DNA of 63,983 nt, the filler included, from Basidiobolus ranarum (Eukaryota), in the NCBI GenBank assembly GCA_040143965.1. It is 4 parts of 4 records of this genome, joined end to end, with 100 filler letters (N's around TTAATTAATTAA, not from the genome) between each part and the next. Parts side by side here need not be neighbours in the genome. Positions count along the whole stretch, not along the records: positions 32,823 to 49,111 come from JASJQH010000347.1; 3 more parts are not named here. One strand, given 5' to 3'. The notes beneath the pieces are model-generated. The model saw only the letters and a list, made by a program, of their open reading frames with translations. It was not told the DNA's origin and searched no databases. The position numbers and the translations under genes were made by a program. Within the stretch, counting starts at the first letter, position 1. Every line of letters begins with the position of its first letter. Below are positions 41,341-48,200 of the stretch, in pieces.

Positions 41341-42929
41341 ATGTTATTTTCCTCTTCCTTCCTTCCCGCATTTGTGTTCCTTCTAAGCACTTCTACTCTG
41401 ATAAGCAGCTCTCGGTTACAGCAGGATTGTACCTACCTTAGTCAAGTTTTTTACCCAGCGTTAAACGGACATTCGTGGTTCAATGACTCCCGTTGGGAGG
41501 ATTCGGATTCTGATAAATGCTGTTCTTGGTTCGGGGTAGAATGTAAAGTAATCTTCGAACTTCGGGTGTATGGACTGTATGTATTTGCGATTTCTGTAGT
41601 ATATGAATTTGGGATGACCATAACTGAACTATTTCTCTACAGTAATCTACCGAGCAACAATCTCTTCGGTGAATTCCCTAGTGATATAGATAAACTTGAT
41701 GGACTCAATTATTTGTAGGTTTTCTTCTTGTGTATTTCCCCCAACTTCAAACTATAAGGTTGAACCTTTTTTTTCCACAGAAAATTAGACGACAATCATA
41801 TTTTTGGAAGAATACCACCCAACATCAATCGTATGACTCAACTTCAATATATGTAAGTCACTGAAGAGAGTATTTCTTATTCCCCATATCTTATTGACCG
41901 ACCTGTTAGTTCCTTGGAAGGCTCTAAACTTAATGGCAGCATACCTGACGAGTTTTTCACCCTAGAGTTGCGACATGTGTAAGTTAATCCAGTTTGGTTG
42001 AATGTATCATGCGTGCCAGGGTATTTATTATTTGTGCCAATTTATCACATTAGCAATTTCAATTACAACGACTTGTGGGGTGAAATCCCTGGTACTCTCC
42101 GAATCTTCAAAAGTTATGATTACTTGTAAGTAGTGATTAGTCCAAGAATCGAGCATTTCACCCTTTTCTTTTAACTAATAACGTCTTAGTGGATTCAAAG
42201 ATAATCAGCTACTCGGCAAAGTTCCCCCGTTCAATATGTCTGATGATTCAGATGGTTGCGATTTACGAGGAAATCAATTTACGTGCATTTGGCCTGGTGT
42301 ACCTTCTTCGTGGCGTGGAACATCAGATCTCGTCTCATGTGGTACGCATAGTAATTTTATTGATTGGCCCTTAGGATCACATGCTAACCTCGGGTATTGA
42401 TAGAATCACTGTTGTCTGATGGACCATCCCTCAGCGATCTTCTTAAAGTCGGTGTAAGCATTGGAGTGGTGCTAATCATAGTGGTGATTGTGGCCTGCCT
42501 ATTGTGTAGAAGAAGATACAGAAGACGACAAAAAACTTCACCAAGTGGGTGATTTCATAGTAGTGGATGGTTTCTTCCGAAAGATTTAAACTAACTCATC
42601 TGATTGATTTTTTCACTCGAATTTTAGATGTACTGGCTTCTACAAATGAATTAATCGAATATCCAGCAAAGCCTGGGGACGCCTACTCTATCGATTCGAC
42701 GAACCCAGCCGCTGGTAGAGTATATCCCGTGTTGGTTACTGGTGTGGCTTATCGTCAAGGTAAAGTTCAACGAGACTTTTTCCCTGAGAACGAGGAGCAA
42801 ATTGAAATCCGGGTGGGTGAACAAGTGCTAGTGAAGCAGATACGTCCCGATCACTGGGTGTACGGTAGAAATTTGAATCGTAACGAGGAAAAGGATGGAT
42901 TATTTCCGTTGAAGTGTGTTTCTTTATGA
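41341..42929 (+). CDS. Single-pass receptor: signal peptide, LRR N-cap, ~5 plant-type LRRs, TM helix, cytoplasmic SH3 (8 exons)
   Basis: Exons 41341-41576, 41643-41714, 41781-41852, 41910-41978, 42054-42125, 42190-42341, 42404-42544, 42628-42929 splice in frame; CCSWFGVEC cap; LxxNxLxGxIP repeats; TM VSIGVVLIIVVIVACLLC-RRRYRRR; SH3-like DFFPENEEQIEIRVGE..DHWVYG..GLFPLKCV. Confidence 0.88.
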
Positions 42930-44301: not shown

Positions 44302-45273
44302 CTATATCAACTTCAGTACCTCTGGTTCTTTGTTGACCAATGGTTCAGAGCTACTAGATATTTTGGCACATTCTTCGGTATGTGGCACCAGGTACTTGTG
44401 AACAAACCAGCGGTGAACTGACGGCTTCTGATCTTTCTCAAATATACGGTGCTCCGAGTAGAAATAGTCGCTGACAAAATCATTTTTTATCATTGTGACA
44501 ACTATTCTTAGGGCGGGATCGAATGCGAACGCCACCGAATTTAGGATGCCCTGTAAAGACATGGTGTAGATCGACATTTCCACCAAAGTAACTGGGGTGT
44601 TACCAATATTGATGTCGATACAGGACTCTCCGCAAGTTAGTAATAATACAAATGCGATCGCAAAAGGCAGCTGAGACACAATAAGAACGCTAGGGTAAAG
44701 TAGTATGCGAACCACTGCTCTGCGTACATTGACATCGTTTAGAGTGTTACCCTGTCTTCCTTGGTCTCTTCCGCCGTGCTCACTACCGTTCAATCTATAA
44801 ACTATTACAAGTACTACAGATATGCAATACGTGACTGCTACGAAGACCACGATGGGTAGTACTAGAGAGGTGGTACGTGCACGATAGATTCCGGAGAGAA
44901 CTGCGACAATCAGTCCCAGACCTAATGAGCCAAACACGTAGAAATATTCGTAGTACATTGATACCCGCTTGTTGTTTAAAAAGATCAGTTGCAGGTTCAA
45001 TGCTATATTCATAGTCAAAAAAATGGAGCTCAAATCCACGCCTAAAGCTATCACTCGTAAACACCTGGTCACGAATACAGAATCGGTGAAGGAGAAGCCT
45101 ATCAAAAGACCACTCAATATAGCATCAAGGGTTGCAATGTAAGCGGTCAAACGGAAAGACATTCGATCCACCAGAGTCTTACGGTAACATCTTATCCCTA
45201 TGATGATGGATATCACCAAAATCGATGCAGCGATGGAAAGCGCGTTCAATACTACGATTCCTACGGCTACCAT
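44302..45273 (-). CDS. Intronless 7TM GPCR-like receptor (cAMP-receptor/Git3-like superfamily)
   Basis: About seven hydrophobic segments; DRMSFRL, NIALNLQLIF, RILLYP and SLQGILN..F..DP motifs. Confidence 0.85.
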   Translation of the reverse strand: MVAVGIVVLNALSIAASILVISIIIGIRCYRKTLVDRMSFRLTAYIATLDAILSGLLIGFSFTDSVFVTRCLRVIALGVDLSSIFLTMNIALNLQLIFLNNKRVSMYYEYFYVFGSLGLGLIVAVLSGIYRARTTSLVLPIVVFVAVTYCISVVLVIVYRLNGSEHGGRDQGRQGNTLNDVNVRRAVVRILLYPSVLIVSQLPFAIAFVLLLTCGESCIDINIGNTPVTLVEMSIYTMSLQGILNSVAFAFDPALRIVVTMIKNDFVSDYFYSEHRIFEKDQKPSVHRWFVHKYLVPHTEECAKISSSSEPLVNKEPEVLKLI

Positions 45274-48200
45274 TTGGTCGTGTGCTTCTATTCTCTAAGG
45301 ATGTAGAAAGTAGTAGATATTTTGTGGTTCAAACAGACTGATTCATGGATACCGGAAATTCAGCCGAACCTCCGGATTATAAAGTAATTCTCTGTCATGT
45401 CCGCTGTAGTCAACAAGCGAGCGTGATTGAGTTCCGCATCAATTGCTAAACGTACTGTTGTATAACCAGTGGATGGGATCGATACAATTGGCCTACCATC
45501 GAGAGTGGATTGGTCCGTAAAGTAAAATGAATCGTATCAAGAACCTAACTAACAAGCTCTGCTGTATTCAAGTGGACAAGTATTACAATCATCAAGCTAT
45601 CCCTCGCACATTGGCATCTGCGTTAATTCCGAGTTGCTACACTGTTGCTCCGACATGTTCATGCATACACCAAGTAATAAATAAGTGAAATAGGGGTACA
45701 TCGACTCTTACGTTGCTATTCTCGGTTTCTACTTTGATTGGCAGGTTAATTTCTGAAGCAAGAAACATTTAATCATCCTCGAATTGTTATGTACATACGG
45801 CTCCTTTCAAGACGATGCAAGCAAACCTATCGGCACTGGCTCTTATTGTGAAACAGTCCCAGATTTTTTTATCCGAATTCCTATAGCTTGGAATTCTACA
45901 TCAGCGATAGGGCTTGATATGTGATACCAGAGCTAAGACTGATCGAAGTGAGAGTATTTTGATTGGAGAAGATACTAATGATCGATAGCATGAAAACGAT
46001 GTATATGTTTAATAGACGCTTGAGGTAGGGATAGGAATATGAGGGAGAAGGTTTACCATGAATTCCACAGGCCAAGCAAAAATCTAAACAACGGATAGAG
46101 CCACCAGATATTGAATTGGTAACCAGACTCCATCTTGAAAAGTGACTAAGTTTGAGTTACTAACAGAAGGAATTCACTCCCGGCCCAGTTTATGGTCTCT
46201 GCATGGTATGAGCGGGATTTTCATACTCATCTAGTTGAGGTGCACCGAAACCGAGGATAAACCGGATGCCATTCATTAAGTGACAACCCAAGACTATCCG
46301 AGAGATGATGCATGACATCGGAGTTTGCACATCCGCATCGATCCTTAATTACATAATACGGTTGCTGGTTTTGAAGGCTACAGCAAAGAGTGGCGAGCTT
46401 CTGATACGGGAGCAAAAGGAAAGTGTACATTGCTAGTTTTCTTTAAAAAATGTTCTTGGCCGTTCCTGCATTGCATACGGAGGCATTCGATTCATAGTTT
46501 AAGCAAAAATCATATATCAGCAGATTGTTCGTATTTTCCGGTCTATTTAGTCTAGAACAGACAATTTCAGATGTCTTACCGTCTGTGAACATATGTGCAT
46601 CGACCTTGTTCCAAGTGTATTTATTGGATTTGATTTAGTTTTCTTGTTTGGTGTCAGCAACTCTATAGCACTAAACTCAGTTGTTAGCATTGCATAGATC
46701 GCGCTTCTACTTTACGAGCCTTCCTAGTAAGCCTATTGATGCACACCAAGTTTTAATATCCAAGACTGCAGTATGGCATGAGCTCGTACGGAGTAATCTA
46801 TAGTTCATCAGTCGATCCGATAAAGTTAGCGTTCGTACAGTGGCTGAATAAAGTATCCACTTGCCACCAAACTCTATCTGTTTCGGTAAATCAATATCCA
46901 CATTATCCATATGCTTCTTATCTAACCACAATCTTTGCGCTCTTTATTGTTCCTTTGTTTTGGATTCTCCACCATTTAATACTACTGGACTCTTTCATGT
47001 AATTAATGGTCACGAGCACAAGAATCCCAGTGTTTAATCCAAGGAATCATTACTGGGTTCTGAAGCACGCTTTAAGTTATTCTGGCCACACTGGTTACTA
47101 TTTGAATACTCTGAGACTGCTGGTGGTTGGGTTATTCGAAGTATGTGGCTTAACACAATAACACATTAAGATGGGAATGGTATCTAAGCTATCTACCTAC
47201 TTGCTGACTCATCCCCCTGATCCTTAGTGCATGCTCACTATAGTGTCTGCCCATACTGATGTATCAATATAACAAAAACATACAAATGCAGTAGCAAACT
47301 TTACTTTGGAGCAATATATCTGACTGCCCAGGATTTAATAATTTAAGAGTACTTCATTATATTATTGCGCTTTGTGGCTTTGCCATCCTCCAATTTCTAG
47401 TAACAACAGATTCAGAATACCAATAAGATCAGCTAGTATAACGTAATTTTATTACTATTATATAGTGTGTATCAGATAAAGAGATCCATTCTTAAATTTT
47501 CAAATAGTTAGGAACTGCCTTTTGCAATATTAGTTTGATGCCTGCATAATTTACGCATCTAAAATATTGAAATGTTAGGGTCAAGTATTCAGGTATTATG
47601 TTCAAGACAATTAGTGCTTATTTACTCAATAGCTCAAGTTCAACATGGATTTTCATTGTATCTCAGAGAAGTCAAAAGAAGACAAATTGCTCAAAACGTG
47701 TATGACTACTCTAGCTTTTCTCTTAACTTCCTTGGTGCTCTAATGGCATATATTTGACCATACATTCTACAGATAAGTCTCAATTCAATTAGGCAATAGA
47801 TGTTAATCCTATATATATTGAGATCATCCCCAATTCTTAAAGGAATTACTGCAAAGATATATTAGAAGTTCAGATGACATTGTAATGAGAAAAATCACTT
47901 CATTTTGTATTAAGTAGCTTGGCCTGTTCATTACACTCTACATTAAAAGTTTAGTGTTGTGATAACTACACAGGATTGTTTTTTGTTACTTAGCTGCTGC
48001 TAGCCAACAAGATACCCTTTCTTTTATAGCCTATCTATTACAAAAGTACTTGCTATATCATGATCATTCAAGCCTAATTGGAGCTGATTATATTTAATTG
48101 ACTGAGTGTTACACACTCTTATTATCATCCAAATATACCAAGTGGTAATCTAGAACTGTTTGTAGTCATAAATAAGAGATTGCAAATTACTAATAATGCA

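Follow-up and report, generated by a model that had tools for sequence, protein, structure and literature searches.

A predicted Basidiobolus membrane protein that joins extracellular leucine-rich repeats to a cytoplasmic SH3 domain

Surface sensing in plants and animals relies mainly on extracellular leucine-rich repeat (LRR) receptors. Fungi are thought to be nearly devoid of them, and the available part of a survey of 101 eukaryotic genomes lists five fungal proteins only with LRRs and a single transmembrane (TM) segment (from a chytrid, two zygomycetes and Postia), none of them with another domain, and no fungal LRR-TM-kinase (Soanes and Talbot 2010, PMC2939053). A gene at positions 41341-42929 (plus strand) of a 63,983-nucleotide (nt) stretch of Basidiobolus ranarum DNA, hereafter the window, raises the question whether a fungal LRR ectodomain can be linked to a folded domain inside the cell, and what such a protein could do. 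We found that the locus is an intact eight-exon fungal gene, already annotated yet uncharacterised, and that its product is likely a type I single-pass membrane protein with the LRRs outside and an SH3 domain inside.

Splicing by coordinates gave a coding sequence (CDS) of 1116 nt from ATG to TGA, which encodes 371 amino acids (aa), and all seven introns were of the GT..AG type with lengths of 57-83 nt. The donor of exon 1 was GTATGT at 41577, the sole choice that closed the frame; the upstream GTAATC at 41548 failed. In a protein database search and comparison, the spliced product was letter-identical to the NCBI entry 'hypothetical protein K7432_007209 [Basidiobolus ranarum]' (P0003), whose UniRef name is 'SH3 domain-containing protein'. 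The coordinates in a preliminary description, which had spliced eight exons by hand, run precisely from the start codon to the stop codon of this CDS, and all the elements it listed (signal-like N-terminus, W..CCSWFGVEC cap, five repeats, C-cap, one TM segment, Arg-rich stop-transfer and SH3 domain) were recovered by hydropathy, pattern, Pfam and PDB searches. An orthologue was found in B. meristosporus CBS 931.73 (ORX98861.1, P0004; 376 aa, 'L domain-like protein'), with 62% identity and collinear over the full length.

The repeats were identified with a pattern of the LxxLxLxxNxLxGxIP type, which matched five times (residues 76, 100, 124, 147 and 171); when residues 70-190 were shuffled 2000 times as a control, 1 of the 2000 shuffles gave any match. 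The five repeats have 23 or 24 residues and are followed by a partial sixth repeat and a C-cap with the cysteines C197, C206 and C224, and the N-cap carries the motif W52...C60-C61-S-W-F-G-V-E-C68. Over the whole protein, Pfam LRR_1 scored 32.7, above its cut-off of 20.6, and LRR_8 scored 18.6, below its cut-off of 27. When the whole protein was searched against PDB sequences (phmmer), the GSO1 ectodomain came first with E = 3.9e-70, then FLS2 and MIK2, and 117 distinct chains were matched at E ≤ 0.01, so the ectodomain match is far above chance; PDB is without bacterial modules of this LRR class, and the nearest-structure comparison is limited to what it contains. An AlphaFold2 (AF2) model of the ectodomain from a 6-sequence alignment reached a pLDDT (predicted local distance difference test score) of 80-94 over residues ~25-225, and the top Foldseek matches of this model in PDB were BIR3, SERK1/2, SOBIR1, BAK1 and BIR2, with TM-scores by target of 0.58-0.76. 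AF2 without an alignment gave a pLDDT of 36.9 and was uninformative. In the Atlas, the top match of the feature search was a BIR2-named cluster (score 0.84), which serves as a lead only; in the structure search, rows 1-4 and 8 were Bacteroidota LRR clusters, and Streptophyta, Chlorophyta and Bacillariophyta clusters were also present. These searches indicate that the ectodomain is a small solenoid with probable disulfide caps, built from five LRRs of the 24-residue 'plant-specific' class, which is one of eight LRR classes in the available text of PMC5976695, and that it matches plant SERK/BIR/SOBIR1 co-receptor ectodomains in size and predicted fold.

The topology was read from hydropathy and from what the two species have in common. 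The N-terminus gave a 9-residue Kyte-Doolittle maximum of 2.69 at residues 7-15. The sole internal run of 19-residue windows with a Kyte-Doolittle value > 1.6 lies at residues ~238-259, with RRRYRRRQK next to it, and both AF2 models have a helix at this predicted TM segment. Seven cysteines (C30, C60, C61, C68, C197, C206 and C224) are conserved in both species, all of them N-terminal of the TM segment, and the N-glycosylation sequon N135-G-S in the ectodomain is kept in the orthologue. The cysteines and sequon before the TM segment, together with one TM segment and its basic stretch, support the type I topology. With one TM segment, the protein clearly does not have the topology of Sho1, which has four; the preliminary description had noted that fungal membrane SH3 sensors such as Sho1 lack LRRs.

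About 110 residues follow the stop-transfer, with the SH3 domain at the end. With exon 8 alone, Pfam SH3_1 scored 23.5 (cut-off 22.9) and SH3_2 23.0 (cut-off 21.8), both above the cut-off, and in the orthologue LRR_1 scored 37.2 and SH3_2 25.5, the latter again above 21.8. Exon 8 searched against PDB sequences at E ≤ 10 gave SH3 domains in 33 of 34 matches, led by vinexin (7e-4) and CD2AP (7.5e-4), and the remaining match was SafD. A profile of the tails of the two species gave 19 PDB matches at E ≤ 1, of which 16 were SH3 chains and 3 belonged to Shank1. Among the SH3 matches in PDB were adaptors of endocytosis and actin (SLA1, CD2AP and sorbin/vinexin). When residues 228-371 of the Atlas model were used for an Atlas structure search, SH3 families occupied 10 of 10 rows, with TM-scores by query of 0.40-0.51. 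In the Atlas feature search, the tail matched three clusters from Basidiomycota, named 'hypothetical protein', with scores of 0.76-0.82, which is below the meaningful level. From these matches, the C-terminal domain is predicted to be a member of the SH3 superfamily.

Several results weigh against reading the product as a capped LRR ectodomain coupled to an ordinary SH3 domain. Pfam LRRNT_2 scored 14.1-15.8, below the cut-off of 20.7, though C61-SWFGVE-C68 aligns with known caps. In the whole protein, SH3_1 (20.4, cut-off 22.9) and SH3_2 (20.0, cut-off 21.8) fell just below their cut-offs, and the tail had a pLDDT < 50 in both AF2 models. The Pfam assignments expected from the preliminary description thus held for SH3_1 and SH3_2 on exon 8 alone, but not for LRRNT_2 and LRR_8. 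The canonical ligand contacts of SH3 domains are, as we take them, the two aromatics of ALYDY, the first Trp of WW, and the Pro and Tyr of PxxY. With positions assigned in this way in the alignment to CD2AP and vinexin SH3 domains, 3 of the 5 contacts (F, W and P) are kept in both species; the other 2 are non-aromatic, with R (K in the orthologue) at the first ALYDY aromatic and C in both species at the last aromatic of PxxY. Because of these two substitutions, the ligand preference may be atypical, and perhaps no classical PxxP peptide is bound, so that classical PxxP binding by the predicted domain is uncertain. Moreover, no PxxP motif common to both species was found in the tail.

The comparison of the two species showed where the sequence has been kept. 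Identity was 38% in the signal segment, 71% in the N-cap, 70% in the LRRs and 79% in the C-cap, which was the best conserved segment (31 of 39 residues); it was 15% in the TM segment, 54% in the linker and 65% in the SH3 domain. High identity in the folded domains with low identity in the TM and signal segments is the pattern to be expected if selection acts on the folded domains, and folded domains that are kept beside a variable anchor fit a functional protein with the SH3 domain in the same product. Two stretches of the linker are invariant between the species, STNEL[IL]EYP just past the exon 7/8 junction and YPVLVTGV directly N-terminal of the SH3 core. They are more conserved than a spacer would need, and may either act as a docking motif or extend the SH3 fold at its N-terminus.

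How far the architecture extends was examined in several ways. Tail-only searches (exon 8; residues 228-371) found the query alone as a protein with this tail, and they were weak, since the known orthologue was also missed. The tail profile, compared with 156 proteins that were mostly giant LRR proteins, recovered the orthologue and 0 of the 155 others. An exhaustive representative search gave 60,833 matches at E ≤ 0.001, and the best 150 of them, ranked by summed score, were the query and giant multi-LRR proteins, hence uninformative on LRR plus SH3 architectures. A scan of prokaryote genomes with the protein gave no match. When metagenomes were scanned with the tail alignment, a single locus was matched, over a 19-residue acidic stretch on a contig of 25% GC, which we judged spurious. 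In the published literature, we found no report of an extracellular LRR with a cytoplasmic SH3 domain, in Basidiobolus, in early-diverging fungi or elsewhere, and the preliminary description's remark that no characterised protein has this architecture agrees with what we found there and in the weak tail-only searches. As far as these weak searches could see, LRR, TM and SH3 occur together in two Basidiobolus species only and in no characterised protein, and the protein appears to be a lineage-restricted combination of two well-known domains.

We then compared the predicted protein with known systems. The plant receptors SERK1/2, BAK1, BIR2/3 and SOBIR1 and the kinase-less receptor-like proteins (RLPs) resemble it in the CxWxGVxC N-cap, the 24-residue repeats, the roughly five LRRs, the Cys-containing C-cap and the single TM segment, and RLPs are alike in having no kinase. 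However, SERK, BIR and SOBIR1 have a kinase inside and RLPs a short tail, whereas the Basidiobolus protein has an SH3 domain and a fungal host. The cap also differs from plant caps, as it has the 'ynGxxWxnxxxW' form of bacterial-type modules and stays below the LRRNT_2 cut-off. Pfam searches of the whole protein at E ≤ 1 gave no kinase family and no other extra domain, which agrees with the kinase-less receptor of the preliminary description; the protein thus lacks the cytoplasmic kinase of plant LRR receptor-like kinases, and its tail, which carries SH3, is not the short domain-free tail of RLPs. Outside plants, LRR-TM proteins are also found in oomycetes, algae and choanoflagellates. They differ by having kinase domains, and the available text of Diévart et al. 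(2011, PMC3268121), which describes several independent origins of these receptor kinases, contains the term SH3 0 times.

On the fungal side, Fus1p of Saccharomyces cerevisiae carries at its cytoplasmic C-terminus an SH3 domain that acts as a scaffold for factors of polarity and fusion, and its ectodomain is short, O-glycosylated and without LRRs. Sho1 has four TM helices, no folded ectodomain, and a C-terminal SH3 domain that docks on a proline motif of Pbs2, a mitogen-activated protein kinase (MAPK) kinase. At the membrane, the SH3 domains of both recruit actin regulators, Cdc42-pathway or MAPK components. The predicted protein shares with Fus1p the character of a type I single-pass fungal plasma-membrane protein and the order of leader, Cys-rich ectodomain, TM segment, basic stretch and terminal SH3 domain, but the likeness is in layout only. 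With Sho1 it shares the membrane anchor and the C-terminal cytoplasmic SH3 domain, but it has one TM segment and an LRR ectodomain instead of four TM helices. Fus1p, which the available part of PMC2132759 describes as a type I membrane protein located in the zone of fusion, and Sho1 would be the nearest fungal functional analogues, as membrane-tethered SH3 domains that assemble polarity or MAPK components.

The LRR ectodomain may receive an extracellular partner and the SH3 domain may tether a cortical one, so that the product would be a kinase-less receptor or an adhesion scaffold and not an enzyme-linked receptor; we give this reading about an even chance. The concave LRR face would bind an extracellular protein or peptide, whether a secreted ligand, a protein of the wall or surface, or a second membrane protein. 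On the inner side, the SH3 domain would tether a proline-rich or similar partner at the cortex, with candidates in the class recruited by Fus1 and Sho1 (formin- or WASP-type actin regulators, Cdc42-pathway proteins or a MAPK-module scaffold), and engagement or clustering outside would localise or release the adaptor complex inside. Signalling through SH3-polyproline docking and sensing of microbes or host, as put forward in the preliminary description, are inferences. In a more specific form, Basidiobolus would use an LRR ectodomain of SERK/BIR size, whose module is perhaps bacterial, to detect a peptide or protein of bacterial, host or self origin, and the SH3 domain would directly recruit polarity, actin or MAPK scaffolds. 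The gut association described for Basidiobolus, amid dense bacterial communities, would be the setting for this form, which seems doubtful to us.

The same data also fit a second account, in which the product would have a structural or adhesive role at the surface, or would act in a BIR-like manner as a negative regulator or co-receptor. The LRR domain would then hold on to a partner in the wall or at the surface, and the SH3 domain would serve only to anchor the protein at the cortex, to localise it in a polarised way or to turn it over by endocytosis (e.g., through machinery of the Sla1/Las17 type). Five-LRR plant ectodomains of this size are co-receptors or regulators rather than primary ligand receptors, and the top fold matches (BIR3, SERK, SOBIR1 and BAK1) and the BIR2-named lead in the Atlas belong to this group; the SLA1, CD2AP and sorbin/vinexin matches of the SH3 domain and the absence of a catalytic domain are also in line with it. 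However, a fungal LRR receptor kinase that could act as the partner is not known, and the available part of the 101-genome survey has none (PMC2939053). We regard this account as rather unlikely.

If the sensing reading were true, the protein would be a third, independent way of coupling an LRR ectodomain to the inside of the cell, and a fungal LRR receptor that also has an intracellular effector domain, a class unseen in the survey of 101 genomes as far as its available part goes (PMC2939053). It would show an LRR ectodomain coupled to SH3 scaffolding, for which a kinase or TIR domain is not needed. In any case, an LRR-TM protein that carries a folded adaptor domain on its cytoplasmic side and is conserved in two Basidiobolus species is a testable exception to the near-absence of such proteins in fungi. 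If it is merely an adhesion or anchoring protein, it would be a lineage-specific domain shuffle of modest significance.

The gene structure of the repeats bears on the age of their exon layout. Introns 1-5 (41577-42189) interrupt the repeats at the identical position, in phase 2, in the codon of the hydrophobic residue that precedes xLxxNxLxGxIP, and exons 2-5 encode one LRR each. One LRR per exon is also seen in the plant SERK and ERECTA genes and in animal glycoprotein-hormone-receptor genes. Mutual identity among introns 1-5 averaged 0.56, and shuffled controls gave 0.52 (SD, standard deviation, 0.04). The introns thus resemble one another no more than shuffles do, which rules out recent exon duplication as the source of this layout, and therefore the layout is old.

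The closest modules that we saw were in the giant proteins among the best 150 matches. These proteins have 1140-7821 aa with 8-25 matching stretches each, arranged as tandem modules of a cap and ~5 LRRs. Source names were looked up for 20 of them, and 3 were named, as 'T9SS type A sorting domain-containing protein [Saprospiraceae bacterium]', 'RHS repeat-associated protein' and 'Leucine-rich repeat (LRR) protein'. A Pfam scan of 5 giant proteins found bacterial markers in 4 (Por_Secre_tail in 2, Big_2 in 2 and FecR in 1), and LRRNT_2 was passed by 3 of the 5 with 58.0-64.7 bits (cut-off 20.7). In total, a bacterial name or marker domain was present in 5 of the 10 giant proteins from the best 150 that were named or Pfam-scanned. 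Single giant-protein modules (for example, residues 1599-1751 of P0044 and 1053-1182 of P0034) matched the Basidiobolus protein with 65-86 bits over residues ~30-187, the best single-module scores seen, and the best single stretches in plant proteins gave 48-50 bits (GSO1/FLS2) and 46 bits (P0005 from Salix); the summed-score ranking favours giant multi-module proteins, and single-module proteins of plants, algae and stramenopiles were not comparably sampled. The cap form 'YnatnGxxWxnxxgW..CsWyGVxC' is common to the giant proteins and Basidiobolus (FYPALNGHSWFNDSRW...CCSWFGVEC). The Saprospiraceae protein P0034 and the RHS-associated protein P0055 thus resemble the Basidiobolus protein in the cap motif, in units of five to six LRRs and in the top single-module scores seen, but they differ in their tens of tandem modules, in their bacterial sorting or Ig-like domains and in lacking a TM-SH3 tail. 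It follows that the 'plant-type' cap and repeat appear abundant outside plants and that this label is too narrow. The preliminary description, which had called them characteristic of plant receptors, stands as to the fold and sequence matches with plant ectodomains, but per module the giant proteins, some of which carry bacterial names or markers, score higher. In this respect, the gene also bears on the source of the 'plant-specific' LRR modules.

One could propose that an ancestor of Basidiobolus acquired the cap and five LRRs from bacteria and that they were fused to a fungal TM-SH3 gene of the Fus1-like kind that already existed, whatever the function of the product; the module would then be neither 'plant-type' nor of ancient fungal descent. 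The single-module scores and the bacterial names or markers of some giant proteins, the common cap motif and the Bacteroidota clusters in the Atlas structure rows would agree with this, and transfer from bacteria to Basidiobolus has been reported for secondary-metabolite genes in the available parts of PMC7466969 and PMC11291939. Against it, five introns split the module, all at one point of the repeat, and these are no more alike than shuffles, which leaves no recent exon duplication to explain them; the GC content of the CDS (42%) is unremarkable in a window of 38%; and LRR is mentioned 0 times in the available text of PMC11291939. In addition, the list of the best 150 favours giant proteins, and the Atlas rows include Streptophyta, Chlorophyta and Bacillariophyta. 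Because the summed-score ranking biases the comparison, a bacterial origin of the module is not claimed here, and we think it unlikely.

That exons 1-7 (LRR-TM) and the SH3 exon give separate products, joined by artefact or as a mixture of isoforms, is very improbable: among the seven donors, that of intron 7 (GTGGGT) departs most from the consensus, retention of this intron would lead to a stop at 42550-42552 and an RLP-like LRR-TM protein without SH3, and the in-frame ATG at 42567 in the intron could start a small cytosolic SH3 protein, but the separately deposited models of B. ranarum and B. meristosporus both join the parts, STNEL[IL]EYP right after the junction is kept in both species, the frame closes across the exon 7/8 junction, and the 14-nt gap from stop to ATG leaves no room for a promoter. 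As an observation apart from this, a regulated SH3-less isoform made by retention of intron 7 is conceivable.

The features of the gene are collected in Table 1.

Table 1 Positions of exons and predicted protein features of the B. ranarum LRR-SH3 gene in the window (res, residues)
Feature	Residues	Position	Strand	Content or basis
Exon 1		41341..41576	+	Start codon, signal-like N-terminus, N-cap, start of LRR1
Signal-like hydrophobic N-terminus	1-24	41341-41412	+	Hydropathy
N-cap with C30 and W52..C60C61SWFGVEC68	25-69	41413-41547	+	Aligns to GSO1 cap and bacterial-type caps
Exon 2		41643..41714	+	72 nt, phase 2-2, remainder of LRR1 (NLPSNNLFGEFP...)
Exon 3		41781..41852	+	72 nt, phase 2-2, LRR2; Pfam LRR_8 stretch res 99-157
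Exon 4		41910..41978	+	69 nt, phase 2-2, LRR3, N135-G-S sequon; best Pfam LRR_1 stretch res 123-145
Exon 5		42054..42125	+	72 nt, phase 2-2, LRR4
Exon 6		42190..42341	+	LRR5, partial sixth repeat, C-cap with C197, C206, C224
Exon 7		42404..42544	+	Extracellular juxtamembrane stretch, TM helix, stop-transfer
Predicted TM helix	~238-259	42442-42507	+	Hydropathy; helix in both AF2 models
Basic stop-transfer RRRYRRRQK		42508-42534	+	Sequence
Intron 7		42545..42627	+	83 nt, donor GTGGGT
Exon 8		42628..42929	+	Cytoplasmic linker, SH3 domain, stop TGA 42927-42929
Cytoplasmic linker	272-311	42628-42746	+	STNEL[IL]EYP and YPVLVTGV conserved
Predicted SH3 domain	~312-371	42747-42926	+	Pfam, PDB and structure searches

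Within the window, tblastn found no second copy of the LRR-SH3 gene, as the other matches all had E values of at least 0.89. The 10 neighbouring open reading frames of at least 90 aa within 34-50 kb had no Pfam match at E ≤ 0.01 and therefore gave no contextual clue on the gene. An open frame of 330 aa (44302-45294, minus strand) lies about 1.4 kb downstream of the gene and likewise has no Pfam match at E ≤ 0.01; it has some six to seven hydrophobic segments and may encode a multi-pass membrane protein, perhaps one similar to G-protein-coupled receptors.

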